This document shows, piece by piece, positions 1,810-51,984 of a stretch of 64,000 bases of DNA. Below the pieces are notes generated by a model, which saw nothing but the letters and a program-made list of their open reading frames with translations, was not told the DNA's origin and made no database searches. The stretch comes from Escherichia coli. GTDB lineage: Bacteria > Pseudomonadota > Gammaproteobacteria > Enterobacterales > Enterobacteriaceae. The translations under genes were made by a program, and so were the position numbers. The stretch lies in assembly GCF_013122565.1 (NCBI RefSeq), contig NZ_CP053258.1; one strand, given 5' to 3'. Numbering within the stretch: the first letter of the stretch is position 1; the number at the start of each line of letters is the position of its first letter.

Positions 1810-1845
1810 CCAAAAAAAACCCGCTGATTAAGCGGGTTTTGAATT
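1810..1845. terminator. bidirectional intrinsic terminator between convergent crcB and cspE
   Basis: aaaaaaaacccgct-gatta-agcgggtttt hairpin with flanking A and T runs. Confidence 0.7.
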
Positions 1846-1859
1846 CTTGCTGACGTATC

Positions 1860-2069
1860 TTACAGAGCGATTACGTTTGCAGCAGAAGGGCCTTTGGCAC
1901 CGTTAGTGATTTCGAACTCTACACGCTGACCTTCAGCAAGAGTTTTAAAACCATTAGTCTGGATTGCAGAGAAGTGTACGAACACGTCTTTGCTGCCGTC
2001 TTCCGGAGTAATGAAACCGAATCCTTTGGACTCATTAAACCACTTAACGTTACCTTTAATCTTAGACAT
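1860..2069 (-). CDS. cspE: cold-shock-domain protein CspE (69 aa)
   Basis: Internal start of track ORF 1860..2153; [37 protein letters not shown] contains the RNP1/RNP2 cold-shock motifs. Confidence 0.95.
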
Positions 2070-2243
2070 CAAAATTACCTTTACATGAAAAATAGACACA
2101 AATGCTGTGTCGGTTACCAGTACACCAATTGTGGTACGCTTTGTCCAGTGCAACTTTACTAAAAAGTGATAAAAGTCGCGTTATTTTTGATGTTAATTAT
2201 TTTACTCATTGATTTTAAAGAGTTTACTAAAATTTCATTTGTC

Positions 2244-5500: not shown

Positions 5501-7127
5501 TAGGTTTCACTTTCGGAATATAGATTGAAAATAAGGTACCGCAGGGATCATTATCTTCGAGAGTGATAACACCACCGCAGCGCGTTACGTAGCTGGCAAT
5601 CAAGTACAACCCAATGCCATGTTCACCGGGCTCGTCAGCACGCGTACTGACCCCCTGCTCAAATATTTTGTCTCGTAGAGACTCTGGAACGCCGCAGCCC
5701 TGATCGGCGACTTCAATCACCACATCATCGCCTTCATCGCTGAGGAATAATTCAACGATCTTGTTTCCTTCATCGCTACGCAGGCTGGCTTCGAAGGCGT
5801 TATCAAGTAAATTGCCCACAATGGCGGCAAACTCGGTGCTATCCAGTCCTGGCGGCAGTTGCGAAAGCTGGCTACCGGGGACGATGATCATTTTTAGCCC
5901 CAGTTCCCGGGCGCGCTGCACTTTACCAAAAAGCAGCCCCGCCACCTGGCGATCGGCAAACGCCTCGCGCAGGCTGTCAATAAGCTGTTGCTGTGCCTGA
6001 GACTCCCCCTGCACCATCGCCAGCACGCGATCATACTCTTTCATCTGCAACAGACCATTGAGCGTCGACATCCAATTGAGATGCTCGTGTCGCAATGTAC
6101 GAAGGCTCTCGACGTATTGTTTTATTTGCGTCAGTTGCGCATTGAGGGTGGAAATTTCGTCTTTACTACGAAAGCTGATAATGGCCCCCAGCAAATCATC
6201 ACCTGAACGAATAGCTTCCCGATTGGCAATAACGCTCAGACCGTTAAAGTTAGCCACCACATCCTGACGTTTTTCATCAATCTGTTCGGTAAAGAAATCG
6301 GCGGGCCTGACCACTTCAGCAATGGGTTTACCCAACCATTGCCGTCCGGGGGAACTCAGCCCCAGCATCTTTCTTGCGTTACGATTGATGGCGGTAATGT
6401 AACCGTGCGGATCCACCGCAATCAGCCCTTCATAAACCGAACTAAATAGCGCCTCTTGCTGACGGACCACGCGTGCGATTTGCTTTGGCTCCATGCCCAT
6501 CATCTGCCGACGGATATGCGCGGCCAGGAACCACGACAGCAACATCAGAATCCCTAACAGCACGACAAACACACCTGCCATTGGTAATAAAAACTCAGCC
6601 CGCCAGCTATCGATTTTACTCACCAGGTAGCCAATCGACACCACGCCGATGACTTTTCCATCGTCATCAAAAATTGGCGTTTTGGCGCGCATCGCCATGC
6701 CCATTGACCCTTTCCCGGTAATGAAGTAGCTCTCCCCTTTCTCCAGCGCGCCCTGTTTGGTGAACTGCATAGGATGACCAATTTTCTCCGGATTAGGATG
6801 GTAAAGGCGGATCGAGTGCCGGTCGCCAATCACCACATAATCAAAATCGGTATCTCTTTGTAATTTGTTAGCGATGGTCGCCAGCCGTTTGTAGTCACGC
6901 GTTTTTACTGCGCTGATGATACTGTCATTAGAAGCAATAATTTTCGCCTGATTCATTGCCATGTCGCGTACATGAAGCGTTAAATAGTCCTCAAAACTGG
7001 CCGTAAAATATTGCGCCAGGGCTGCAATGACAAATATTGAGAACACCAGAATCAGCAAAAAGATACGCAGCGGAAATGCCAGTCTTTGGAAAAATGCAAA
7101 CTGTTTATTCTCGTTAAGCTGCAACAT
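5469..7127 (-). CDS. dpiB: sensor histidine kinase DpiB/CitA (552 aa)
   Basis: Track ORF 5469..7187 trimmed to internal Met (MLQLNENKQFAFFQRLAF...) to give 552 aa; periplasmic sensor plus HATPase_c motifs. Confidence 0.9.
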   Translation of the reverse strand: MLQLNENKQFAFFQRLAFPLRIFLLILVFSIFVIAALAQYFTASFEDYLTLHVRDMAMNQAKIIASNDSIISAVKTRDYKRLATIANKLQRDTDFDYVVIGDRHSIRLYHPNPEKIGHPMQFTKQGALEKGESYFITGKGSMGMAMRAKTPIFDDDGKVIGVVSIGYLVSKIDSWRAEFLLPMAGVFVVLLGILMLLSWFLAAHIRRQMMGMEPKQIARVVRQQEALFSSVYEGLIAVDPHGYITAINRNARKMLGLSSPGRQWLGKPIAEVVRPADFFTEQIDEKRQDVVANFNGLSVIANREAIRSGDDLLGAIISFRSKDEISTLNAQLTQIKQYVESLRTLRHEHLNWMSTLNGLLQMKEYDRVLAMVQGESQAQQQLIDSLREAFADRQVAGLLFGKVQRARELGLKMIIVPGSQLSQLPPGLDSTEFAAIVGNLLDNAFEASLRSDEGNKIVELFLSDEGDDVVIEVADQGCGVPESLRDKIFEQGVSTRADEPGEHGIGLYLIASYVTRCGGVITLEDNDPCGTLFSIYIPKVKPNDSSINPIDR

Positions 7128-7507
7128 TGTTTTCCTTGCGGGTTGTCCCGAACCTCTTTGACGGATGTAATTAAAATGTTGAATCAAAATACATAGATAT
7201 TAATTATGATCGTGGCAAATTTTATTCATTAAATCAATTAAATCACTTAAACCTGCGGGTCATTTCGCAATTACATTAATTAAAAAACTTAAAACCATTA
7301 AATAAATAAAAAACCACTAACTCTATGTGAAATAAATCAAAATTTCACGCCGAAATACTCCTTAGGATGTATAGCGAAAGGAGAAAAAGATATACCTCGA
7401 TCGCCCTCCCTTTCTCCCAAGTGAAAATAAAAGGTTATCAGTTTGCAACATTGAACAACATTCGTTGCAAATCGATAACAATATGCACCTTCAGGATACT
7501 ATTTATT

Positions 7508-8566
7508 ATGTTCGGCAATGATATTTTCACCCGCGTAAAACGTTCAGAAAATAAAAAAATGGCGGAAATCGCCCAATTCCTGCATGAAAATGATTTGAGC
7601 GTTGACACCACAGTCGAAGTATTTATTACCGTAACCCGCGATGAAAAGCTTATCGCGTGCGGTGGAATTGCCGGAAATATTATTAAATGCGTTGCTATCA
7701 GTGAATCCGTTCGCGGTGAAGGACTGGCGCTAACATTAGCCACTGAATTGATAAACCTCGCCTATGAGCGGCACAGCACGCATCTGTTTATTTATACCAA
7801 AACCGAATACGAGGCGCTGTTCCGCCAGTGCGGTTTTTCCACGCTGACCAGCGTACCTGGCGTGATGGTGCTGATGGAAAACAGCGCCACGCGACTGAAA
7901 CGCTATGCCGAATCGCTGAAAAAATTTCGTCATCCAGGGAACAAGATTGGCTGCATTGTGATGAACGCCAATCCCTTTACGAATGGTCACCGTTATCTGA
8001 TTCAACAGGCTGCGGCACAGTGCGACTGGTTGCATCTGTTTTTAGTCAAAGAAGATTCTTCACGCTTCCCCTATGAAGACCGGCTGGATCTGGTGTTAAA
8101 AGGCACCGCCGATATTCCACGTCTGACTGTGCATCGCGGCTCCGAATACATCATCTCCCGCGCTACGTTCCCTTGCTACTTCATTAAAGAACAGAGCGTC
8201 ATTAACCATTGTTACACCGAAATTGATCTGAAGATTTTCCGTCAGTACCTCGCTCCCGCGCTGGGTGTAACTCACCGCTTTGTCGGTACTGAACCCTTTT
8301 GTCGCGTTACCGCCCAGTACAACCAGGATATGCGCTACTGGCTGGAAACGCCGACTATCTCCGCACCGCCCATCGAACTGGTTGAAATTGAGCGGCTGCG
8401 TTACCAGGAGATGCCGATATCCGCTTCCCGGGTACGTCAACTGCTGGCGAAAAACGATCTCACGGCTATCGCGCCGCTGGTCCCTGCAGTCACGCTGCAT
8501 TATTTGCAGAACCTGCTTGAGCACTCCCGCCAGGACGCGGCAGCTCGTCAAAAGACCCCCGCATGA
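7508..8566 (+). CDS. citC: [citrate (pro-3S)-lyase] ligase CitC (352 aa)
   Basis: Internal ATG (MFGNDIFTRVKRSENKKMAEI...) of track ORF 7367..8566; heads the citCDEFXG operon. Confidence 0.9.
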   Translation: MFGNDIFTRVKRSENKKMAEIAQFLHENDLSVDTTVEVFITVTRDEKLIACGGIAGNIIKCVAISESVRGEGLALTLATELINLAYERHSTHLFIYTKTEYEALFRQCGFSTLTSVPGVMVLMENSATRLKRYAESLKKFRHPGNKIGCIVMNANPFTNGHRYLIQQAAAQCDWLHLFLVKEDSSRFPYEDRLDLVLKGTADIPRLTVHRGSEYIISRATFPCYFIKEQSVINHCYTEIDLKIFRQYLAPALGVTHRFVGTEPFCRVTAQYNQDMRYWLETPTISAPPIELVEIERLRYQEMPISASRVRQLLAKNDLTAIAPLVPAVTLHYLQNLLEHSRQDAAARQKTPA

Positions 8567-15167: not shown

Positions 15168-15313
15168 TCATCTGATTTACAAAACACGCTAATTCGTCTC
15201 CCATAAACCATGACGATTAAGATTTATACATAATGCGCTGCATTGAGGAATTCCCTGAATGTGACGCAAATCACTTCAAAGAGTGAGCAACAGTCAGTAT
15301 CATCATGTGAGTT

Positions 15314-15348
15314 AAACCCTCGCCGCCTGACGGTGAGGGTTTTCTTTT
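15314..15348 (+). terminator. intrinsic terminator downstream of rna
   Basis: aaaccctcgccg-cctga-cggtgagggtttt-cttttgg hairpin plus U-tract (coordinates approximate). Confidence 0.6.
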
Positions 15349-15396
15349 GGGTATGTTTATCTGCGACACTCGCAGTACCGACGACATGGAGTAAAA

Positions 15397-15862: not shown

Positions 15863-16037
15863 TTACGCAAAATCAGCAATTTTTCCTGGTTCTCACTGTT
15901 CACTTTTGCTGCAAAATTATTCCGTTTCGTTTGTGGGAATAACCATGGCAGAAGCATTTTACATCCTGATAGGATTCCTGATTATGGCGGCGATTATCGT
16001 CATGGCTGTCCTTTACCTCGAAAACCACTCCTGACGA

Positions 16038-17276
16038 TCATATTGTTCCCCCCGGCATCGCATTCACCAGACCTGAAACTGCCTTCTGCGCTGCCTCTGC
16101 GCTTTGTGCACCGGGTACCAGAATCACCTTACGGCACTCCTCTTCACGTTTTTCGAAAATCTCATATCCCCGGGCGGCCTCTTCAAACGGCATATAGTGG
16201 GTAACAATTTCTTCTGGTTTCAGTAATCCTTTCTCAATTAACGGTAATAATTCTCCCAGCCATGCGTGAACGTGGGTCTGTCCCATTTTAAACGTCAACC
16301 CTTTATCAAAGGCGTCGCCAAACAGGAAACCGTGAATAAATCCAGCGTAGACGCCCGGCACGCTAACAATGCCGCCACGCCTGACCGCCGCAATACACTG
16401 GCGCAACGCTTTACCGCTGCTGCCCTCCAGTTTCAGGTTAGTCAGCACCGTTTCCGTGGTGCTGCCTTTCGCTTCAAAACCGACGGCGTCTATTACTGCA
16501 TCCACGCCCCGGTGACCTGCCGTTTGTTCAATAATTGACTGTGCCGGATCGCTATCTTCATCAAAATTAATCGGGATCGCGCCGTAGCGGTCAGCGGCGA
16601 AACGCAAGCGGTAGGGATGATGATCAACAACAAAAATCTGTTCCGCACCGAGCAACCGTGCACAGGCGATTGTCAACAATCCCACAGGACCGGCACCATA
16701 GACTGCAACGCTTGAACCTTGTTGGATCTGCGCATTTTTTGCTGCCTGCCATGCCGTTGGCAGAATATCAGAAAGGAAAAGGGCTTTATCATCTGAAAGC
16801 AAAGGCGGTACTTTAAACGGCCCCACATTCCCTTTAGGGACGCGGACATATTCCGCCTGCCCGCCAGGAACGCCACCATACAGGTGACTATAACCAAACA
16901 ATGCCGCGGGAGCTGGTATCTGTTTTTTATTGAGCGCAGCGCCTTTACCCGCATTGGTATTTTCGCAGGCGGCATATTGCTGCAATCGACAGAAAAAACA
17001 GTCGCCACAAGCAATGACGAACGGAATTACCACCCGGTCGCCTTTTTGCAAATTTTTTACGTCCTTTCCGGTTTCAACGACTTCCCCCATAAATTCATGA
17101 CCAAAAATATCGCCATGTTTAACCTGGGGTATTTTGCCTCGATAAAGGTGGAGGTCAGAGCCACAGATCGCCGTTGCCGTAATACGCAGAATTATATCAT
17201 CTGCCTGTTCAATGCCCGGATCGGGAACATTTTCTACCTGAACGTGATGTGGGCCGTGATAAGTCAATGCTTTCAT
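16038..17276 (-). CDS. ybdR: zinc-type alcohol dehydrogenase-like oxidoreductase (412 aa)
   Basis: Track ORF 412 aa with MDR zinc-ADH motifs ([21 protein letters not shown]). Confidence 0.9.
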
Positions 17277-20470: not shown

Positions 20471-20718
20471 TTGCACCGCCGGCGGCGATAAAAAGTAAAA
20501 TGGGCCCCCTTTCCAGGTGACCGTGTAATCTGAACTACCCTTTGGTATCTTCAGCGCCTGTTCAGCAGGCTGCGTTGTTGCCCTTACAAATGCAACAACG
20601 ATAAGGATTACAACACCCTCATAAACAAAGGGCAATCACCTGATCTAAGCTCTTACCTATGACAGTGATAGGTTATGCCTTTTGCCCCATTTTTGCACTG
20701 ACTGAAAAGGATAAATAA

Positions 20719-21465
20719 ATGCTAAAAAAGTCACTTTTAATGACAATGCTACCTGCCATTGCCTTCGCAGAGGAACTTCCTGCTCCAGTAAAAGCGATTG
20801 AAAAACAGGGCATTACAATCATCAAAACGTTCGATGCCCCCGGAGGAATGAAAGGTTATCTCGGAAAGTATCAGGATATGGGCGTCACCATCTACCTGAC
20901 TCCAGATGGTAAGCACGCTATCTCTGGTTACATGTACAACGAGAAAGGTGAAAACCTGAGTAACACACTTATCGAAAAAGAAATTTACGCACCAGCCGGA
21001 CGCGAAATGTGGCAACGGATGGAACAATCCCACTGGCTCCTCGACGGTAAAAAAGACGCGCCGGTCATTGTCTACGTCTTCGCCGATCCGTTCTGCCCAT
21101 ATTGTAAACAGTTCTGGCAGCAGGCGCGCCCGTGGGTAGATTCTGGCAAAGTGCAGTTGAGAACATTGTTGGTTGGGGTTATCAAACCAGAAAGTCCGGC
21201 GACAGCCGCGGCAATTCTTGCCTCCAAAGATCCCGCAAAAACCTGGCAAGAATATGAAGCCTCTGGTGGCAAGCTTAAGCTAAACGTGCCTGCAAACGTA
21301 AGTACAGAGCAAATGAAAGTGTTAAGCGATAACGAGCAACTCATGGACGATCTGGGGGCAAATGTCACACCCGCTATCTATTACATGAGTAAGGAAAATA
21401 CGTTGCAACAAGCCGTGGGGTTGCCCGATCAGAAAACGCTTAATATCATTATGGGAAATAAATAA
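20719..21465 (+). CDS. dsbG: periplasmic disulfide isomerase DsbG (248 aa)
   Basis: Track ORF 248 aa with signal peptide and CPYC thioredoxin-fold active site. Confidence 0.92.
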
Positions 21466-21477
21466 AAGATAATTCAT

Positions 21478-21513
21478 GGATGGTTGAAATATACCCCTGC
21501 TTTTCAACCATCC
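21478..21513 (+). terminator. hairpin after dsbG (terminator candidate, weak U-tract)
   Basis: ggatggttgaaa-tatacccctgc-tttcaaccatcc 12-bp inverted repeat 13 nt after the dsbG stop. Confidence 0.45.
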
Positions 21514-21672
21514 TTAAAACGCATGAATTGCTCGCTCTGTGCCAGATGGCTGTGCTATTTTAGAAAAACTTAATCCTGAGTTAAGCAAAAAAACATAATC
21601 AATAAAAATATATACGCAAAAACATTGATTAAGTGAATACTTCATGGAAGAAAAATATAACCGGAGTACTGT

Positions 21673-22575
21673 ATGGCCAATCTCTACGACCTGAAAAAGT
21701 TCGACTTAAATCTTCTTGTCATCTTTGAGTGCATTTATAAACACTTAAGCATAAGCAAGGCTGCTGAGTCATTATATATCACTCCATCAGCAGTGAGTCA
21801 GTCGTTACAACGCTTACGTGCGCAATTTAATGACCCTTTATTCATTCGCTCAGGAAAAGGTATCACGCCAACTACGACAGGGTTAAATTTACACAATCAC
21901 CTTGAGAAAAACCTCAGAGGTCTTGAGCAAACAATCAATCTTGTTAATAAATCGGAAGTAAAGAAAAATTTTATTATCTACGGTCCTCAGCTCATCTCCT
22001 GTTCTCATAACCGCATGCTGATCCGCTGCCTACGGCAAGATACCTCGGTCGAGATTGAGTGCCATGACACACTTATTTCAGCCGAGAATGCTGAAGAACT
22101 GTTGGTTCATCGCAAAGCCGATCTGGTGATCACTCAAATGCCAGTGATCAGTCGTTCCGTCATTTGTATGCCATTGCATACGATTCGTAATACCCTAATT
22201 TGTAGTAATAAACATCCCCGGATTACAGATACCAGTACTTACGAACAAATTATGGAAGAAGAGTTCACCCAATTAATTTCCAAATCATCGGGGCTTGATG
22301 ACATTCAAATGGAAATAGACGAGAGGTTTATAAATCGTAAAATTGCCTTTCGTGGCTCCTCTTTATTGGCGATCATAAATAGCATTGCGATTACAGATTT
22401 GCTAGGAATAGTTCCCTTTGAACTTTATGAATCCCACCAAGAATCTCTTAATTTAAAGGAAATAAAACTAGAGCACCCCCTACCCTTGGTTAAGCTTTAC
22501 ATTTGTTACAACAAGACTTCTCTAAACAACCTGGCATTCTCACGATTCATTGACAGATTGAATGATAATTCTTGA
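21673..22575 (+). CDS. ybdO: LysR-family transcriptional regulator (300 aa)
   Basis: Track ORF 300 aa with N-terminal LysR HTH (LSISKAAESLYITPSAVSQSLQRLR); strongly AT-rich coding sequence. Confidence 0.88.
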   Translation: MANLYDLKKFDLNLLVIFECIYKHLSISKAAESLYITPSAVSQSLQRLRAQFNDPLFIRSGKGITPTTTGLNLHNHLEKNLRGLEQTINLVNKSEVKKNFIIYGPQLISCSHNRMLIRCLRQDTSVEIECHDTLISAENAEELLVHRKADLVITQMPVISRSVICMPLHTIRNTLICSNKHPRITDTSTYEQIMEEEFTQLISKSSGLDDIQMEIDERFINRKIAFRGSSLLAIINSIAITDLLGIVPFELYESHQESLNLKEIKLEHPLPLVKLYICYNKTSLNNLAFSRFIDRLNDNS

Positions 22576-22720
22576 TATATAGATTCAGAGAGAGGCTACA
22601 TCCTTTCATTTCTATTCATTTCATCAATAAAAAATAAAATACTCTACCTTACAGGACTTACTTTATAATTAACGACCTTATCTCACTGATCACCCTGTAA
22701 CGTTCAGAGAGCGTATTTAG

Positions 22721-23941
22721 ATGTCTATTTATAAAATTCCTCTTCCACTCAATATTCTGGAAGCTGCACGAGAGCGTATTACCTGGACACTCAATACCCT
22801 ACCCCGCGTTTGTGTCTCATTTTCTGGCGGCAAAGACTCTGGTTTAATGCTGCATCTGACAGCCGACCTTGCCCGACAAATGGGCAAAAAAATCTGCGTT
22901 TTGTTTATCGACTGGGAAGCGCAGTTCTCATGCACTATCAACTATGTTCAGTCACTACGCGAGTTTTACGCCGATGTCATCGAAGAGTTTTACTGGGTTG
23001 CGCTCCCGCTTACGACGCAAAATTCCCTTTCACAATACCAACCCGAATGGCAGTGCTGGGAACCTGATGTCGAATGGGTGCGTCAGCCCCCGCAAGATGC
23101 GATAACCGATCCTGACTTTTTCTCCTTTTACCAGCCAGGCATGACCTTCGAACAATTTGTACGTGAGTTTGCCGAATGGTTTTCACAAAAACGTCCGGCG
23201 GCGATGATGATCGGCATCCGTGCGGATGAGTCCTACAATCGTTTTGTCGCCATCGCCAGTTTAAATAAACAACGTTTTGCCGACGATAAACCCTGGACTA
23301 CGGCCGCGCCAGGCGGTCATAGCTGGTACATATACCCCATCTACGACTGGAAAGTCGCCGATATCTGGACCTGGTATGCTAAAAACCAAAGCCTCTGTAA
23401 CCCACTGTATAATCTGATGTATCAGGCAGGTGTCCCTCTGCGTCATATGCGAATTTGCGAACCTTTTGGCCCGGAGCAACGGCAAGGATTATGGCTCTAT
23501 CACGTCATCGAACCGGATCGCTGGGCGGCCATGTGCGCACGAGTCAGCGGAGTAAAAAGTGGCGGCATTTACGCCGGACATGACAACCATTTTTATGGTC
23601 ATCGTAAAATCCTCAAGCCGGAACATTTAGACTGGCAGGAGTATGCATTATTGCTACTCAGCAGCATGCCGGTGAAAACAGCTGAACATTACCGTAATAA
23701 AATCGCCATTTATTTGCACTGGTATCAGAAAAAAGGCATCGAGGTTCCACAAACCCAACAAGGGGACATTGGCGCGAAAGATATCCCCTCCTGGCGGCGA
23801 ATATGCAAAGTTTTACTCAACAACGATTACTGGTGCCGGGCATTATCATTTAGCCCCACAAAAGCGAAGAATTATCAGCGTTATAACGAACGGATAAAAG
23901 GAAAACGTCAGGAATGGGGGATACTATGCAACAACGATTAA
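22721..23941 (+). CDS. ybdN: PAPS-reductase-like PP-loop ATP pyrophosphatase domain protein (IbrA-like, 406 aa)
   Basis: Track ORF 406 aa; PP-loop motif SFSGGKDS at residues 33-40 (about nt 22817-22840). Confidence 0.88.
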   Translation: MSIYKIPLPLNILEAARERITWTLNTLPRVCVSFSGGKDSGLMLHLTADLARQMGKKICVLFIDWEAQFSCTINYVQSLREFYADVIEEFYWVALPLTTQNSLSQYQPEWQCWEPDVEWVRQPPQDAITDPDFFSFYQPGMTFEQFVREFAEWFSQKRPAAMMIGIRADESYNRFVAIASLNKQRFADDKPWTTAAPGGHSWYIYPIYDWKVADIWTWYAKNQSLCNPLYNLMYQAGVPLRHMRICEPFGPEQRQGLWLYHVIEPDRWAAMCARVSGVKSGGIYAGHDNHFYGHRKILKPEHLDWQEYALLLLSSMPVKTAEHYRNKIAIYLHWYQKKGIEVPQTQQGDIGAKDIPSWRRICKVLLNNDYWCRALSFSPTKAKNYQRYNERIKGKRQEWGILCNND

Positions 23942-24543
23942 CGCAGGATTTAACGCAATTTCTCGCCAGCTTGCCGGAAGACGATCGCATCAAAGCGATT
24001 AATGAAATCCGCATGGCGATCCATCAGGTAAGTCCTTTTCGGGAAGAGCCGGTGGATTGTGTTTTGTGGGTCAAAAATGATCAGCTTGTGCCAAATGATT
24101 ACAACCCAAACAACGTGGCACCGCCCGAGAAAAAATTGCTGAAAAAATCCATTGAAACTGATGGTTTTACCCAACCCATTGTGGTGACCAACACGACAGC
24201 CAATTCACTTGAAATCGTTGATGGTTTTCACCGCCATGAAATCGGTAAAGGATCATCATCATTAAAACTACGCTTAAAAGGTTATTTACCGGTGACCTGC
24301 CTGGAGGGGACGCGTAATCAGCGCATCGCCGCGACTATTCGTCATAATCGCGCTCGTGGACGCCATCAAATCACCGCCATGTCGGAAATCGTCCGTGAAC
24401 TTAGCCTGTTGGGATGGGACGATAATAAAATTGGCAAAGAGCTGGGAATGGACAGCGACGAAGTGCTGCGCCTGAAGCAAATTAACGGCCTGCAAGAGTT
24501 GTTTGCCGACCGTCAATATTCCCGCGCCTGGACTGTCAAATAA
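23914..24543 (+). CDS. ybdM: ParB/Srx-like nuclease domain protein (IbrB-like, 209 aa)
   Basis: Track ORF 209 aa; DGFHRHE motif at residues 103-109 (about nt 24220-24240); 28-nt overlap with ybdN. Confidence 0.88.
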   Translation: MGDTMQQRLTQDLTQFLASLPEDDRIKAINEIRMAIHQVSPFREEPVDCVLWVKNDQLVPNDYNPNNVAPPEKKLLKKSIETDGFTQPIVVTNTTANSLEIVDGFHRHEIGKGSSSLKLRLKGYLPVTCLEGTRNQRIAATIRHNRARGRHQITAMSEIVRELSLLGWDDNKIGKELGMDSDEVLRLKQINGLQELFADRQYSRAWTVK

Positions 24544-25704
24544 CTACAGCTGGCGCAGGCGTTCAGCTGCTGCCAGCAACGTCGATTCCTTCTTGGCAAA
24601 ACAGAGACGAATCAGTTTATGTGGGAAGGGATCGGCGCAAAACACCGATAGCGGAATCGCCGCTACGCCGTGCTCCTGCGTCAGCCACTGGCAAAACTCA
24701 ACATCATCCAGGGTAGATACGGCGCTGTAATCCACCAGCAAAAAGTATGTGCCTTCGCACGGTAAAATCTCCAGCCGACTTTCATTTAAGGCGTTAACCA
24801 GAATATCGCGCTTCTGGCGATAAAAGTCCGGTAACGCAAGATAATGCTCAGGTTCTGCACGTAGCATATCGGCAAGCGCCAGCTGTGCCGGGGTATTTAC
24901 CGAAAAGGTCAGATACTGATGTACCTTGCGAATTTCGGCACTGATGGGCGCTGGCGCAACGCAATAACCCACTTTCCAGCCGGTCATATGATAGGTCTTG
25001 CCAAACGATGACACCGCCACCGCCCGCTCACGCAACTGCGGATGCGCCAGCACACTGGCATGGCCCTGTTGTGAAAAGTTGATGTGCTCGTAGACTTCAT
25101 CGCTAATGACAAAAATCTCGTGCCCGGCGATCGCCTGCCACAAAGCGGCGAAATCAGCCTGCTGCCAGACAGTTGCACTGGGGTTATGCGGAGTGTTGAG
25201 GATCACCAGTCGGGTGCGCTCGCTTAACAATGCGGCAAATTCCTGCCAGTCAACGCGAAAATGCGGTGGTTGCAGTGCCATACGCTTCACTATTCCCCCA
25301 GAAAGCGCGATGGCGGGGGCGTAACTGTCATAGCTGGGATCAAAACAAATCACTTCATCGCCATTGCGCACCAATGCGGTAATCGCCGCGTATAACGCCT
25401 CCGTCGCCCCTGCCGTTACGGTGATATCGCTGTCGGCATCCGGTTGATAGCCATACAGACGTTCCGTTTTCTGAGCAATCGCCTCGCGCAAGGCCTGCAC
25501 GCCGCTCATGGGCGCGTATTGGTTTGCCCCCTGGGCAACGTGGTACGCCAGTCGCTCTTGTAAATAGCGCGGACCATCAAAATCAGGAAAGCCTTGCGAA
25601 AGGTTAATCGCCTGGTGTTGCTGCGCCAGCGCGCTCATCTGGGTGAAAATAGTGGTGCCAAGTTGTGGAAGTTTGCTTTGTGGAATCAGAGGGTTATTTG
25701 TCAT
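24544..25704 (-). CDS. ybdL: PLP-dependent methionine aminotransferase (386 aa)
   Basis: Track ORF 386 aa, class I/II aminotransferase pattern (SFGKTY lysine region); stop abuts the ybdM stop. Confidence 0.9.
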   Translation of the reverse strand: MTNNPLIPQSKLPQLGTTIFTQMSALAQQHQAINLSQGFPDFDGPRYLQERLAYHVAQGANQYAPMSGVQALREAIAQKTERLYGYQPDADSDITVTAGATEALYAAITALVRNGDEVICFDPSYDSYAPAIALSGGIVKRMALQPPHFRVDWQEFAALLSERTRLVILNTPHNPSATVWQQADFAALWQAIAGHEIFVISDEVYEHINFSQQGHASVLAHPQLRERAVAVSSFGKTYHMTGWKVGYCVAPAPISAEIRKVHQYLTFSVNTPAQLALADMLRAEPEHYLALPDFYRQKRDILVNALNESRLEILPCEGTYFLLVDYSAVSTLDDVEFCQWLTQEHGVAAIPLSVFCADPFPHKLIRLCFAKKESTLLAAAERLRQL

Positions 25705-25812
25705 TTTTATTGTACCTGACGAAGTTGCGTGTTGAAGGCACTATAACACGATGCTAGTATTTGGCAATCAAGACGTTTAGATGTCTAAATAAAACAATAA
25801 GGACAACACAAC

Positions 25813-26901
25813 ATGCCTCACAATCCTATCCGCGTGGTCGTCGGCCCGGCTAACTACTTTTCACATCCAGGAAGTTTCAATCACCTGCACGATTTTTTCA
25901 CTGATGAACAGCTTTCTCGCGCGGTGTGGATCTACGGCGAACGCGCCATTGCTGCGGCGCAAACCAAACTTCCGCCAGCGTTTGAACTGCCAGGGGCAAA
26001 GCATATTTTGTTTCGCGGTCATTGCAGCGAAAGCGATGTACAACAACTGGCGGCTGAGTCCGGTGACGATCGCAGCGTGGTGATTGGCATCGGCGGCGGC
26101 GCACTGCTCGACACCGCGAAAGCCCTCGCCCGCCGTCTCGGTCTGCCGTTTGTTGCCGTTCCGACGATCGCCGCCACCTGCGCCGCCTGGACACCGCTCT
26201 CCGTCTGGTATAACGATGCCGGACAGGCGCTGCATTATGAGATTTTCGACGACGCCAATTTTATGGTGCTGGTGGAGCCAGAGATTATCCTCAATGCGCC
26301 GCAACGATATCTGCTGGCGGGGATCGGTGACACGCTGGCGAAATGGTATGAAGCGGTGGTGCTGGCCCCGCAACCAGAAACGTTGCCGCTAACCGTGCGG
26401 CTAGGGATCAATAATGCGCTGGCTATTCGCGACGTCTTGTTAAACAGTAGCGAACAGGCGCTTGCCGATCAGCAAAATCACCAGTTAACGCAATCATTTT
26501 GCGATGTGGTGGATGCCATTATTGCTGGTGGTGGGATGGTTGGTGGTCTGGGCGATCGTTTTACGCGTGTGGCGGCAGCTCATGCCGTGCATAACGGTCT
26601 GACCGTGCTGCCGCAAACCGAGAAGTTTCTCCACGGCACCAAAGTCGCCTACGGAATTCTGGTGCAAAGCGCCTTGCTGGGTCAGGATGATGTGCTGGCG
26701 CAATTAACTGGAGCGTATCAGCGTTTTCATCTGCCGACTACGCTGGCGGAGCTGGAAGTGGATATCAATAATCAGGCGGAGATCGACAAAGTGATTGCCC
26801 ACACCTTGCGCCCGGTGGAATCCATTCATTACCTGCCGGTCACGCTGACACCGGATACGTTGCGTGCAGCGTTCGAAAAAGTGGAATCGTTTAAAGCCTG
26901 A
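25813..26901 (+). CDS. ybdH: iron-containing alcohol dehydrogenase family hydroxycarboxylate dehydrogenase (362 aa)
   Basis: Track ORF 362 aa, glycerol-dehydrogenase-like fold (GGGALLDTAKA motif). Confidence 0.9.
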   Translation: MPHNPIRVVVGPANYFSHPGSFNHLHDFFTDEQLSRAVWIYGERAIAAAQTKLPPAFELPGAKHILFRGHCSESDVQQLAAESGDDRSVVIGIGGGALLDTAKALARRLGLPFVAVPTIAATCAAWTPLSVWYNDAGQALHYEIFDDANFMVLVEPEIILNAPQRYLLAGIGDTLAKWYEAVVLAPQPETLPLTVRLGINNALAIRDVLLNSSEQALADQQNHQLTQSFCDVVDAIIAGGGMVGGLGDRFTRVAAAHAVHNGLTVLPQTEKFLHGTKVAYGILVQSALLGQDDVLAQLTGAYQRFHLPTTLAELEVDINNQAEIDKVIAHTLRPVESIHYLPVTLTPDTLRAAFEKVESFKA

Positions 26902-26910
26902 CGTACACAT

Positions 26911-27108
26911 TTAGCAGCAGCGCGCGCCGCCTTTTCCACCGTAGCGCGCGTCCTGCCGCTCACGGAAAAACTCCTCGTAGGTCATCGGCGTCTGATCGGG
27001 ATGGTTAACCCGCATATGTTCGACATAGTTGTCGTAATCAGGCATACCAATCATCAGTTTCGCCGCCTGACCTAAATATTTTCCGGCTTTTGCCAGTGAA
27101 TCAAACAT
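26911..27108 (-). CDS. ybdD: small DUF466 protein encoded downstream of cstA (65 aa)
   Basis: Track ORF 65 aa ([48 protein letters not shown]...). Confidence 0.85.
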
Positions 27109-39087: not shown

Positions 39088-39899
39088 CCGAATCAGTAGC
39101 CCGTTTGCGCGGCGAACAGTTAACCCTGGGATATGGCAAATATACCGTTGCGGAAAATCTGACTGTAGAAATTCCTGATGGTCACTTCACGGCAATTATC
39201 GGACCAAATGGCTGTGGTAAATCCACGTTACTGCGTACCTTAAGCCGCCTGATGACGCCTGCTCACGGGCATGTCTGGCTGGATGGCGAGCACATTCAAC
39301 ATTACGCCAGTAAAGAAGTTGCACGCCGGATTGGTCTGTTGGCGCAAAATGCCACCACGCCGGGCGATATCACCGTGCAGGAGCTGGTGGCGCGTGGACG
39401 TTATCCGCATCAACCGCTGTTTACCCGCTGGCGCAAAGAGGATGAAGAAGCGGTAACGAAAGCGATGCAGGCCACGGGAATAACTCATCTGGCAGATCAA
39501 AGCGTGGATACCCTTTCTGGCGGACAACGCCAGCGAGCGTGGATCGCGATGGTGCTGGCCCAGGAAACGGCAATTATGCTGCTCGACGAACCCACGACCT
39601 GGCTGGATATCAGTCATCAGATTGATCTACTGGAACTGTTAAGCGAACTGAACCGCGAGAAAGGCTATACCCTGGCGGCGGTGCTGCACGATCTTAATCA
39701 GGCCTGTCGTTACGCCAGCCATTTGATTGCATTGCGGGAAGGGAAAATTGTTGCTCAGGGAGCGCCGAAGGAGATTGTCACTGCTGAACTGATTGAGCGC
39801 ATTTATGGTCTGCGATGCATGATCATTGACGATCCGGTAGCCGGAACGCCGCTTGTGGTGCCGCTCGGACGAACGGCACCTTCAACCGCAAATAGTTAA
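39084..39899 (+). CDS. fepC: ferric enterobactin ABC transporter ATPase FepC (271 aa)
   Basis: Internal ATG at 39084 (MTESVARLRGEQLTLGY) of track ORF 38943..39899; Walker A GPNGCGKST and LSGGQRQR signature. Confidence 0.93.
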   Translation: MTESVARLRGEQLTLGYGKYTVAENLTVEIPDGHFTAIIGPNGCGKSTLLRTLSRLMTPAHGHVWLDGEHIQHYASKEVARRIGLLAQNATTPGDITVQELVARGRYPHQPLFTRWRKEDEEAVTKAMQATGITHLADQSVDTLSGGQRQRAWIAMVLAQETAIMLLDEPTTWLDISHQIDLLELLSELNREKGYTLAAVLHDLNQACRYASHLIALREGKIVAQGAPKEIVTAELIERIYGLRCMIIDDPVAGTPLVVPLGRTAPSTANS

Positions 39900-49067: not shown

Positions 49068-49164
49068 GCCGGATGCGGCGTGAACGCCTTATCCGGCCTA
49101 CAAAATCTTGCTAATTCAATATATTGCAGGACTACGTAGGCCTGATAAGCGTAGCGCATCAGGC
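49068..49164. repeat. BIME: two REP units in inverted orientation between fepA and entD
   Basis: gccggatgcggcgtgaacgccttatccggcctaca (49068-49102) and gtaggcctgataagcgtagcgcatcaggc (49136-49164). Confidence 0.6.
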
Positions 49165-51044: not shown

Positions 51045-51562
51045 TTTTTCGTGGGATGAGCTAAGGCTTTCAGCTTTTTTAGATACACAAGCCGCGTTTC
51101 AAGAAATCGAACTTGCCTTTCAAGATCCTCAATGCGTCGGTCTTTTGACAGCTCCAATGCTGATGCCGCTTTTTCTGGATCAACTGATATTGCAATGTTT
51201 CTTTTGGTGCCAATCTTGAGCGCGCGTAAACCAGCTTCTCCGCGCTCTTCATAAACCTTCAGCCACCTGGCTACAGAACCACTACCAGCAAGCATAAAGT
51301 GAGCAGCAGCCTGATTAAGGGACATGTGCTGCTCGATCACAGCTTTCACGACCTTAATACGCAACTCTGGATCAGCACTAACACCTTTAGGTTTGGGAAT
51401 TAAACCTTTTTCTCCATGTTTTTCATAGAGGGCAACCCATGTCCTGACCTGGGTTCGGGGGACACCAAAACGTGCCGAGATGATCCTGTAACCATCATCA
51501 GTAGTGAAGTAGTGATTCACGACTTCAAGGCGCTTTTCAAAAGGGTATTTTGGCTTTGACAT
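51041..51562 (-). CDS. insJ: IS150 OrfA (InsJ, HTH DNA-binding, 173 aa)
   Basis: Track ORF 173 aa (MSKPKYPFEKRLEVVNHYFTTDDGYRIISARFGVPRTQVRTW...), recognised as IS150 OrfA. Confidence 0.93.
   Translation of the reverse strand: MSKPKYPFEKRLEVVNHYFTTDDGYRIISARFGVPRTQVRTWVALYEKHGEKGLIPKPKGVSADPELRIKVVKAVIEQHMSLNQAAAHFMLAGSGSVARWLKVYEERGEAGLRALKIGTKRNIAISVDPEKAASALELSKDRRIEDLERQVRFLETRLVYLKKLKALAHPTKK
51074..51080 (-). other. IS150 programmed -1 ribosomal frameshift slippery heptamer A_AAA_AAG near the end of orfA
   Basis: orfA codons ...CTA AAA AAG CTG... (L-K-K-L) located 11-12 codons before the orfA stop, within the orfA/orfB overlap window. Confidence 0.7.
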
Positions 51563-51984
51563 ATCAGGGGCTATTCCATTTCATCGTCCAACAAAATGGG
51601 TGCAGTACAGGGTTGATAGAAATATCTCCTGGGGCTTCATCTTTCCAGACCTCAGAGTAAACCTGAAACCGGAAAGCTTCAGGCACCCGCCGTTATCTTA
51701 CCCTTCCTCAACAAAATAGCTGTTTATTTATACAGTGAGTCCTGTTTCGGACTTCTCACTCCCCATTTGATCAACTGAAGCTGAACCCGTTTTTTTCTGC
51801 ATGCCGCAATCGTCAAAATTCTTCGCCACCAGCCAGCCGTGCCATAACTTGTCACATTGCAAAAGTAGCCAAATTGCTTCAGGCACCATCAGTTCACCAT
51901 CACCAAAAAAAAGAAACATTCCAGAACTTCCGCATCTCGCCCAGCCGCTCCGACTTCTATACTGAATAGAAAACGCCAACATAA

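Follow-up and report, generated by a model that had tools for sequence, protein, structure and literature searches.

The zero-spacer boundary between the convergent genes ybdM and ybdL in Escherichia coli: a probably old junction with a candidate ybdL 3' hairpin inside ybdM

The window, a 64,000-nt stretch of Escherichia coli DNA from contig NZ_CP053258.1, contains a pair of convergent genes, ybdM and ybdL, which end against each other (Table 1). The Pfam domains encoded around them are DsbG, a LysR regulator, PAPS reductase/DUF3440, ParB_N, a class I/II aminotransferase, Fe-ADH and CstA. The ybdN frame overlaps the start of ybdM by 28 nt, and ybdNM is a weakly expressed operon repressed by CitR (PMC9068703). 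The two stops stand tail to tail (...gtc aaa TAA/CTA cag ctg..., positions 24541..24546), with the ybdM TAA at 24541-24543 on the plus strand and the ybdL TAG at 24546-24544 on the minus strand (CTA at 24544-24546 on the plus strand), and the spacer between them is 0 nt. This is how a sequence-only reading of the stretch had described the junction, and the sequence, the ORF list and the RefSeq annotation all agree with it. RefSeq gives the same abutting coordinates in K-12, in MB53 (a strain 99% identical to the window), in an APEC O1:K1 strain and in GmF046. The zero-spacer junction can be seen in every K-12 annotation.

Table 1. Features of the ybdM-ybdL region, numbered from the first letter of the window
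Feature	Position	Strand	Basis
Inverted repeat 3' of the dsbG stop	21473..21518	+	17-nt arms, 88% complementary (repeat search)
citR (ybdO), LysR-type repressor of ybdNM	21673..22575	+	ORF list; Pfam; 39% GC; PMC9068703
ybdN CDS, PAPS reductase + DUF3440	22721..23941	+	ORF list; Pfam; RefSeq
ybdM CDS, IbrB-like, ParB_N domain, 209 aa	23914..24543	+	ORF list; Pfam ParB_N; RefSeq (K-12; MB53)
U-rich tail UUUGCUUC, directly 3' of the stem-loop on ybdL-sense RNA	24473..24480	-	Sequence
Stem-loop on ybdL-sense RNA, candidate ybdL terminator or protective 3' hairpin	24481..24517	-	MFE fold
ybdL CDS, methionine-oxo-acid transaminase, 386 aa	24544..25704	-	ORF list; Pfam Aminotran_1_2 E=2.9e-59; RefSeq
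Two predicted hairpins on ybdM-sense RNA	24549-24577, 24581-24636	+	Fold z=-2.1

Both proteins end at C-termini that are typical of their families. The YbdM C-terminus, ...AWTVK, is common to homologs of 36-55% identity or lies within a few residues of theirs, and the YbdL stop residue is identical in 80/80 species loci, whether ybdM adjoins or is absent. The junction might be thought a coincidence or an annotation artefact, one of the two stops having been mis-called; that both frames stop where their homologs stop argues against this. Among other convergent genes, such spacing is found at the tight end of the range. Four arbitrarily chosen 50-kb stretches of K-12 contain 23 convergent CDS pairs, whose spacers run from 0 to 501 nt and in most cases fall at 40-150 nt. 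One of the 23 (yceK-msyB) is spaced by exactly 0 nt, and two further pairs by 10 nt or less. Within the window itself, the yldA/ybdR spacer is 3 nt, the hcxA/ybdD spacer is 9 nt, and the fepC and fepE stops overlap by 4 nt (39896-39899). Since the K-12 sample and the window both hold similarly tight pairs, a zero spacer belongs to the lower tail of the distribution, uncommon yet not unique. In yceK-msyB and fepC-fepE, as in ybdM/ybdL, the stops abut or overlap tail to tail, and in fepC/fepE a boundary even tighter than ybdM/ybdL exists 15 kb off, between core enterobactin genes.

The junction is also widely inherited. Of 5426 complete E. coli genomes, 5331 (98%) carry the dsbG-citR(ybdO)-ybdN-ybdM-ybdL block, as do all recovered Escherichia, Salmonella and Citrobacter loci. 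Across 48 aligned ybdM-bearing sequences (the window plus 47 species loci, which are related, so that counts over them are not independent), the spacer is 0 nt in 46, and these span about 11 genera: Escherichia, Salmonella, Citrobacter, Enterobacter, Klebsiella, Raoultella, Kluyvera, Lelliottia, Pseudocitrobacter, Superficieibacter and Huaxiibacter. The stop codons themselves turn over (TAG, TAA or TGA for ybdL, TAA or TAG for ybdM), while the spacer stays at 0. Two Citrobacter species carry a 13-nt insertion between the stops, thus zero spacing is not strictly required. Compared with the ybdD-hcxA junction, which varies from 8 to 859 nt in the same genomes and takes up REP elements and inserted genes, the ybdM/ybdL junction is unusually stable. 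With both stops at what would be their ancestral positions, the spacer may simply have shrunk to zero, a state that should be very stable because only a single phosphodiester bond is left where an insertion is harmless. We therefore read the junction as an old, stably inherited and maximally compacted convergent boundary, with a ybdL 3' end formed at a hairpin inside ybdM, rather than as the scar of a fresh insertion, and we give this reading a probability of about 60%.

The sequence-only reading had taken the flush boundary as the mark of an insertion of the citR-ybdN-ybdM block directly against a core gene. Part of this is reasonable. Base composition in the block is atypical, with 39% GC in citR, 32-33% in the flanking intergenic regions and 48% in ybdN and ybdM, against 52% for the window and 54-57% for ybdL, hcxA and cstA. 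Kosakonia and Pluralibacter lack ybdNM, and there dsbG converges straight on ybdL with a spacer of 4-30 nt; more distant Enterobacterales likewise lack the genes. Because the block is lower in GC and absent from these taxa, an ancient insertion between dsbG and ybdL is plausible, if unproven. The inverted repeat behind dsbG looks like that gene's own terminator-like hairpin; it opens a 207-nt AT-rich spacer that would form the left edge of the putative inserted block.

A stronger version holds that a horizontally acquired ybdO-N-M island landed flush at the ybdL stop, leaving the zero spacer as a scar and the island without its own terminator. Besides composition and absence from those taxa, it can draw on the reported silencing by H-NS via citR (PMC9068703) and on the stretch from the ybdM stop to 25835, in which no terminator-like site was found on the plus strand. 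However, with the block in 98% of E. coli and the same 0-nt junction in about 11 genera, what relatives carry is essentially the block with identical ends, which does not fit a recent insertion. Genomes without the block are either as far off as another genus or family, or have lost it in an IS-mediated deletion; the candidate H40 (17% coverage) was rejected as an empty site, as it reflects an ISKpn26-mediated deletion from citR to entF. The Pfam domains of the block (LysR, PAPS reductase/DUF3440 and ParB_N only) include no integrase or transposase, no tRNA was found in the window, and a repeat search found no direct repeats bracketing 21466-24543. Core genes such as fepC/fepE and hcxA/ybdD are packed about as closely, and a later deletion of spacer can also give zero spacing. 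The comparison with ybdNM-less genomes, proposed earlier as a way to define the insertion boundary, does yield the short dsbG-ybdL spacers of Kosakonia and Pluralibacter, but the direction of the event could be either ancestral gain or loss in Kosakonia, and secondary loss does occur. The island is thus an unlikely explanation of the zero spacer, and a flush gene boundary beside AT-rich genes is in itself not evidence for recent insertion. Partial PADLOC matches of YbdN/YbdM to defence components (DndC, BrxP, type II methyltransferase) are weak, and no claim of a defence system is made.

A spacer of 0 nt leaves no place for an intergenic terminator, and each transcript must therefore end inside the other gene. 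To this extent the earlier remark that ybdM has no room for a terminator is right, and overlap of the two transcripts has already been published by others: in E. coli MG1655, ybdL-ybdM is one of 165 convergent pairs whose transcripts overlap (ExcludonFinder 2025; PMC12288877), the listed pairs overlapping in at least 50% of 58 RNA-seq samples. However, a 3' hairpin can sit inside the coding sequence of the partner, and this seems to be the case for ybdL. What the present analysis adds is a ybdL-sense hairpin within the last 25 codons of ybdM. Its sequence is AUUGACGGUC-G-GCAA (7-nt loop) UUGC-A-GGCCGUUAAU, and it lies 27-66 nt past the ybdL stop, within ybdM codons of about 185-197. In the window this is a stable G+C-containing stem-loop of 14 pairs, which folds at -16.6 kcal/mol when read in the ybdL sense and at -9.1 in the ybdM sense. 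Across Escherichia, Citrobacter, Salmonella, Enterobacter and Klebsiella its energy ranges from -13 to -21.5 kcal/mol, and in 37/48 sequences the ybdL-sense fold is the stabler of the two.

The same alignment points to a structure that is kept as RNA. Over the 48 sequences 78% of cells are paired, whereas sliding the partners yields 54.5% at most. G-U pairs are found at two positions, in 45/48 and 31/48 sequences, whose equivalents on the ybdM-sense strand are C-A mismatches. One pair covaries, being C-G in 20 sequences and U-A in 18. Compensatory change beyond the coding constraint is thus present, among related sequences and with the qualification that a register shifted by -3, the codon periodicity, scores covariation as high as the true register. 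The hairpin is weak in this register in two genera, Kluyvera and Pseudocitrobacter, where another upstream arm seems to pair instead.

The YbdM family consensus over this stretch, LRLKQ..GL.ELF....YS.AWTVK, is fairly conserved, so some nucleotide conservation at the end of ybdM is expected anyway, and the hairpin could be a mere by-product of the peptide. RNAalifold, which returned only weak consensus structures from both alignments and did not recover the ybdL-sense hairpin, would agree with this; because of that outcome, our case is built on counting pairs, comparing the two strands and recoding. For the last of these, the first 93 nt past the ybdL stop were set against 200 synonymous recodings of the same peptide. 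On the ybdL-sense strand z is -2.8 in the window and -2.2 on average, falling below 0 in 48/48 sequences and below -1.64 in 37/48, whereas the opposite strand averages only -0.7. With the peptide held fixed, an excess of RNA structure 3' of ybdL is thus present on one strand only and is conserved. The hairpin even improves once the ybdM frame has been destroyed (see below), and together with the positions of the stops these results make any artefact, in the annotation or in the fold, very improbable.

The destroyed frames come from three lineages in which secondary loss of ybdNM can be demonstrated (L025, L055 and L074). All they keep of ybdM is its last 50 nt or so, in register. Their homology to ybdM rests on an identity of 50-57% in register versus 24-26% at shifted registers, as blastn of the remnants against ybdM-bearing relatives gave no match at E<=1e-3. 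The remnants fold as free-standing stems of 15-17 bp, fully Watson-Crick in L074, and no U run follows them. More generally, a strong hairpin lies within about 90 nt 3' of ybdL in most taxa that lack ybdM. These observations suggest, at somewhat less than even odds, that the last ~25 codons of ybdM are dual-coding, specifying both the YbdM C-terminus and an antisense stem-loop that ends or protects the ybdL mRNA. Selection on the RNA would then have constrained ybdM codons, and even some amino acids, across the Enterobacteriaceae, and would have kept the stem after ybdM was deleted.

How the hairpin acts can be proposed by comparing it to known 3' ends. It is probably either a ybdL terminator or a protective 3' stem-loop. 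Without a spacer, 3'-end formation of each mRNA would fall inside the partner gene, and the stem-loop antisense to the last 25 ybdM codons may, with UUUGCUUC, act as an intrinsic terminator. E. coli ybdL shares with such terminators a stable stem-loop soon after the stop. The U-rich tail behind it has 5 U in 8 nt in E. coli and makes an imperfect U-tract, with variants UCUGCUU and UUUGUUU. By eye, the Gln codon at the tail is CAA in roughly 34/48 sequences, which favours antisense U, but Lys AAG is commoner than AAA, opposite to a U-tract trend; because the two trends oppose each other, no selection on the U-tract is claimed. Alternatively, the stem-loop might protect a transcript terminated by Rho. 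In Rho-dependent mRNAs the 3' end is marked by a stable stem-loop that lacks a U-tract (Dar and Sorek, 2018; PMC6061677), and the remnant hairpins of the ybdNM-less lineages, which have no U run, resemble these structures guarding against 3' exonucleases. The candidate ybdL element differs from both kinds in lying wholly inside the coding sequence of another gene, on its antisense strand. Scanned for consensus terminators, the segment 21000-27000 gave no call at the hairpin and nothing on the plus strand 3' of the ybdM stop, and Rfam gave no family at 24300-24800, even at E<=1. The Term-seq supplements of Adams et al. contain no 3' end or Rho region for ybdL or ybdM, whether sought by gene name or by position, the look-up by position having used 634.2-635.1 kb from our own estimated U00096.3 conversion; low expression may explain the absence.

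With its zero spacer annotated in K-12 and its transcript overlap published, the junction itself matters little. The hairpin offers a modest, testable example of a 3'-end RNA structure of one gene that would be encoded in the frame of its convergent neighbour and would outlive the loss of that neighbour. It bears on how compact bacterial genomes accommodate terminators, on a possible constraint on synonymous positions where convergent genes end, and on the risk of altering ybdL expression when ybdM is recoded or deleted.

The published list also raises the possibility of a selected excludon, in which the full 3' overlap would be kept for mutual repression of ybdNM and ybdL, by transcriptional interference or by RNase III cutting the duplex, leading to mutually exclusive expression. 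The geometry is that of a convergent excludon, with ybdM ending at 24543 on the plus strand and ybdL at 24544 on the minus strand. Like the pairs on that list, which also includes ybdD-hcxA, ybdR-yldA, yceK-msyB and clsC-opgC, ybdL-ybdM are adjacent convergent genes with overlapping 3' transcripts, though their 0-nt spacer compares with a reported mean of 95 nt. [quoted passage not shown] The stability of the ybdM/ybdL junction relative to ybdD-hcxA would fit, as would a mild excess of structure antisense to the ybdL 3' end that is seen only in taxa with an abutting convergent gene. However, deletion of citR strongly raises ybdN and ybdM, and ybdL is not among the changed genes in those data; it appears nowhere in the main text of the paper, including its listed differentially expressed genes (PMC9068703). 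An SdsR paper that mentions ybdL was set aside as unrelated to the junction. In addition, several losses of ybdNM have left ybdL and its hairpin in place, a 13-nt spacer is tolerated, and no functional link is known between a methionine transaminase and an IbrAB-like pair. A selected excludon is accordingly improbable here.

Under the compacted-boundary reading, the rare ybdNM transcripts, repressed by CitR and reportedly silenced by H-NS via citR, would run into antisense ybdL and might be ended diffusely by Rho, polymerase collision or decay. Convergent pairs can have overlapping transcripts that end without a canonical terminator or Rho, for which head-on collision of polymerases has been proposed (SEnd-seq, Ju et al., 2019; bioRxiv 10.1101/2022.10.23.513370). 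The ybdL-ybdM pair is similarly convergent, but the collision model concerns well-expressed pairs with a defined overlap; since ybdNM is very weakly expressed (PMC9068703), collisions with ybdL should be rare. The two hairpins predicted on the ybdM-sense RNA, just past the ybdM stop and antisense to the ybdL 3' end, are followed by no U-tract. Their recoding test gives z=-3.6 on a near-identical locus (L004) and a mean of only -1.17 across 47 species, and RNAalifold finds no structure shared among them. They are weak candidates for a ybdNM 3'-end structure: with the same reserve as for the dual-coding proposal, of which this forms the second half, a weaker reciprocal structure in the last ybdL codons may serve the incoming ybdNM transcript, or that of dsbG. 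As for Rho, a Rho-dependent region lies antisense to hcxA at the neighbouring tight junction (PMC7815308), which shows that this mode of termination operates locally.

The convergent genes ybdM (+) and ybdL (-) abut tail to tail: ACT GTC AAA TAA is followed directly by CTA CAG CTG (24532-24552), and the ORF coordinates leave a spacer of 0 nt. This was claimed in the sequence-only reading, and it is borne out by the sequence, the ORFs and the RefSeq annotation. In RefSeq the genes also abut in K-12 (in locus L001, ybdM 6217-6846 + and ybdL 6847-8007 -), in two strains that are divergent, and in MB53, whose identity to the window is 99%. The gene names of that reading agree with the Pfam domains.

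Coordinates of the features (window positions unless a locus of the species scan is named)
Feature	Position	Strand	Remarks
DsbG	20719-21465		Pfam
Inverted repeat	21473-21518		17 nt, 88% complementary; directly 3' of dsbG stop
LysR regulator (citR, ybdO)	21673-22575		Pfam
PAPS reductase + DUF3440 (ybdN)	22721-23941		Pfam
Direct repeat CAACAACGATTA	23818-23829 and 23929-23940		exact, 12 nt
ybdM ORF	23914..24543	+	209 aa; stop TAA 24541-24543; Pfam ParB_N
ybdN end/ybdM start overlap	23914-23941		28 nt, different frames
Predicted ybdL hairpin	24517-24481	-	14 pairs
ybdL ORF	24544..25704	-	386 aa; stop TAG (CTA on + strand) 24544-24546; Pfam class I/II aminotransferase
Fe-ADH (hcxA)	25813-26901		Pfam; CstA domain also found
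yldA/ybdR junction	16034-16038		spacer 3 nt
hcxA/ybdD junction	26899-26913		spacer 9 nt
fepC/fepE overlap	39896-39899		4 nt; fepC (+) ends 39899, fepE = wzz(fepE) (-) ends 39896
cspA thermoregulator	1812-2170	-	Rfam gathering-score match
rnk leader	15243-15351	+	Rfam gathering-score match
ES036 sRNA	49102-49143	+	Rfam gathering-score match
sok antitoxin RNA	51533-51688	-	Rfam gathering-score match; adjoins hokE
Insert, Citrobacter sp. Cu233	L016:9162-9174		13 nt
Insert, C. youngae CCUG 30791	L049:9162-9174		13 nt
Raoultella terrigena	L074:9162-9230		without ybdNM; ~50 nt of ybdM 3' end, then citR-like gene, dsbG
Enterobacter sp. 10-1	L025:9162-9230		without ybdNM; ~50 nt of ybdM 3' end, then citR-like gene, dsbG
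Klebsiella indica	L055:9162-9235		without ybdNM; ~50 nt of ybdM 3' end, then citR-like gene, dsbG

This boundary between two genes is compact and old. Of 5426 complete E. coli genomes, 5422 match the 6.2-kb stretch from dsbG to hcxA and 5331 cover it to at least 80%; the lowest-coverage genome inspected carries an IS-mediated deletion rather than an empty site. Scanning one genome per species with YbdL yielded 80 loci, and ybdM adjoins ybdL in 50 of them (tblastn, window proteins as queries). The window and 47 of these 50 were aligned, the 48 sequences covering Escherichia, Salmonella, Citrobacter, Enterobacter, Klebsiella, Raoultella, Kluyvera, Lelliottia, Pseudocitrobacter, Superficieibacter, and Huaxiibacter. 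A 0-nt spacer is seen in 46, the sole exceptions being two Citrobacter with a 13-nt insert exactly between the stops (TGACGTGATTTCG or TGACGCGATTTCG). Since the stop codons vary (TAG, TAA, or TGA for ybdL; TAA or TAG for ybdM) at a constant 0 nt, it is the spacing that is conserved, not the sequence. By textbook estimates, the split between Escherichia and Salmonella alone is, to an order of magnitude, 100 million years old. As a control, the ybdD-hcxA junction of the same genomes has spacers that run from 8-9 nt in Escherichia through 35 nt in Salmonella and 11-191 nt in Citrobacter, which has REP-like inserts, to 859 nt in Pseudocitrobacter, where a two-ORF module is inserted. Compared with this 8-859 nt range, the ybdM-ybdL boundary is unusually stable.

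A zero spacer belongs to the lower tail of the distribution and is not singular. There are 704 convergent pairs in E. coli (preprint), and the 23 convergent CDS pairs sampled from four arbitrarily picked 50-kb K-12 stretches have spacers of 44, 4, 50, 133, 90, 132, 46, 43, 154, 41, 165, 501, 34, 98, 49, 40, 63, 7, 0, 41, 39, 42, and 95 nt. One pair, yceK-msyB, is at exactly 0 nt, and 3/23 are at 10 nt or less. Core-gene pairs also show zero spacing, so this feature alone does not mark the edge of an island. The fepC/fepE pair of the window, core genes of the enterobactin locus, has a convergent junction tighter than that of ybdM and ybdL.

The abutment was initially said to fit an island, citR-ybdNM, inserted flush against a core gene. 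Insertion itself is plausible. The GC content is 39% in citR, 32-33% in its two intergenic regions, and 48% in ybdN/ybdM, against 54-57% in ybdL, hcxA, and cstA. In Kosakonia, dsbG is the direct convergent neighbor of ybdL, across a 30-nt spacer containing a hairpin and a T-run, and 4 nt separate the two genes in Kosakonia cowanii and Pluralibacter; in Enterobacterales farther off, ybdL has none of these neighbors. Such gene orders would fit a block that entered between the two convergent stops, of dsbG and ybdL, in an ancestor shared by the Escherichia, Klebsiella, and Enterobacter groups; loss in Kosakonia is the other possible direction of the event. What does not stand is to take the junction for the scar of a recent insertion. 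Identical junctions are found in Escherichia and its sister genera; Pfam, tRNA, and repeat searches found no integrase, tRNA, or flanking direct repeats for citR-ybdNM; and secondary loss happens, ybdNM having disappeared from three lineages that retain a citR-like gene and dsbG. In these, a decayed ybdM 3' end has kept its register relative to the ybdL stop (50-57% identity, versus 24-26% in shifted registers). Both proteins keep their native ends: the YbdL C-terminus is at the same residue in 80/80 loci, with or without ybdM, and many full-length YbdM homologs (36-55% identity) align through the final residues of query and subject, most terminating at ...AWTVK or a few residues away. Judging from these alignments, the junction was formed without extension or truncation of either gene, and the spacer is simply missing.

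The same reading held that there is no room for a terminator and that transcripts must end within the opposite gene, which is sound. The overlap is already documented: ybdL-ybdM, ybdD-hcxA, and ybdR-yldA belong to the 165 convergent pairs for which ExcludonFinder reports overlapping transcripts in 50% or more of 58 MG1655 RNA-seq samples (PMC12288877). The junction is therefore both annotated and catalogued. The ybdNM operon is repressed by CitR and barely expressed in wild type, and citR is reported to be H-NS-regulated (PMC9068703). At the neighboring tight junction, the antisense strand of hcxA carries a Rho-dependent region (Adams et al., PMC7815308), so read-through antisense RNA in this neighborhood is ended by Rho; ybdL and ybdM are absent from those listings by name and estimated coordinates.

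The ybdL-sense RNA is predicted to fold into a stem-loop just past the ybdL stop (AUUGACGGUC-G-GCAA, a 7-nt loop, UUGC-A-GGCCGUUAAU, then UUUGCUUC), within the ybdM codons encoding ...KQINGLQELFADRQY.... Five lines of evidence suggest that this hairpin is under selection. Its free energy is -16.6 kcal/mol, versus -9.1 on the ybdM-sense strand, and stability favors the ybdL-sense strand in 37/48 sequences, since the opposite strand has C-A mismatches in place of conserved G-U pairs. Across the 48 sequences, which are related to one another, 78% of cells are paired, versus at most 54.5% with slid partners; one stem pair occurs as C-G 20 times and as U-A 18 times, and one slid register equals the covariation score of the true one. 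Against 200 synonymous recodings per species, which keep that species' own peptide, the native ybdL-sense RNA of the first 93 nt past the ybdL stop is the more stable in 48/48 (mean z -2.2, 37 below -1.64); on the opposite strand the mean z is -0.7. The piece of ybdM surviving in the three loss lineages is the hairpin segment, with stems of 15-17 bp (fully Watson-Crick in Raoultella terrigena), and most taxa without ybdM have a strong hairpin within ~90 nt past ybdL. Neither RNAalifold nor the terminator scan calls the hairpin, and it is weak in this register in Kluyvera and Pseudocitrobacter. The U-run that follows is imperfect, and is missing from the remnants without ybdNM. The candidate hairpin may be the ybdL terminator or, with about even confidence, a stem-loop that protects an mRNA terminated by Rho, after Dar and Sorek (PMC6061677). 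Such an element embedded in ybdM is of a kind already known and adds a small, testable point. A weaker, reciprocal signal is present on the antisense strand of the final 33 ybdL codons, with a mean z of -1.17 where ybdM abuts, -1.89 where dsbG does, and +0.18 without a convergent neighbor; no shared structure was found there.

The ybdN/ybdM overlap, which RefSeq likewise annotates in K-12 and further strains, suggests translational coupling within the operon. YbdN and YbdM (annotated "IbrB-like") are a widespread pair: a search of 1.8 billion 50% cluster representatives gives YbdM 1935 relatives (E<=0.001), some far longer than itself, and PADLOC gives weak DndC, BrxP, and methyltransferase matches to the pair and nothing stronger. 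The inverted repeat after dsbG looks like that gene's own terminator and opens the 207-nt, 33% GC spacer preceding citR. MB53, the closest genome, has an ISEcp1-blaCTX-M-32 insertion in the upstream citC region; this is seemingly not in the window, because the upstream features are out of line with MB53. Positions 20700-26900 are ~94% identical to K-12 and ~91% to B2 strains, reaching 99% or more in only 5/5422 genomes. CitR is the most divergent protein (89% to K-12, 73-87% in other Escherichia), compared with 99% for YbdL and 100% for CstA. The AT-rich citR either evolves much faster than its neighbors or exists as distinct alleles.
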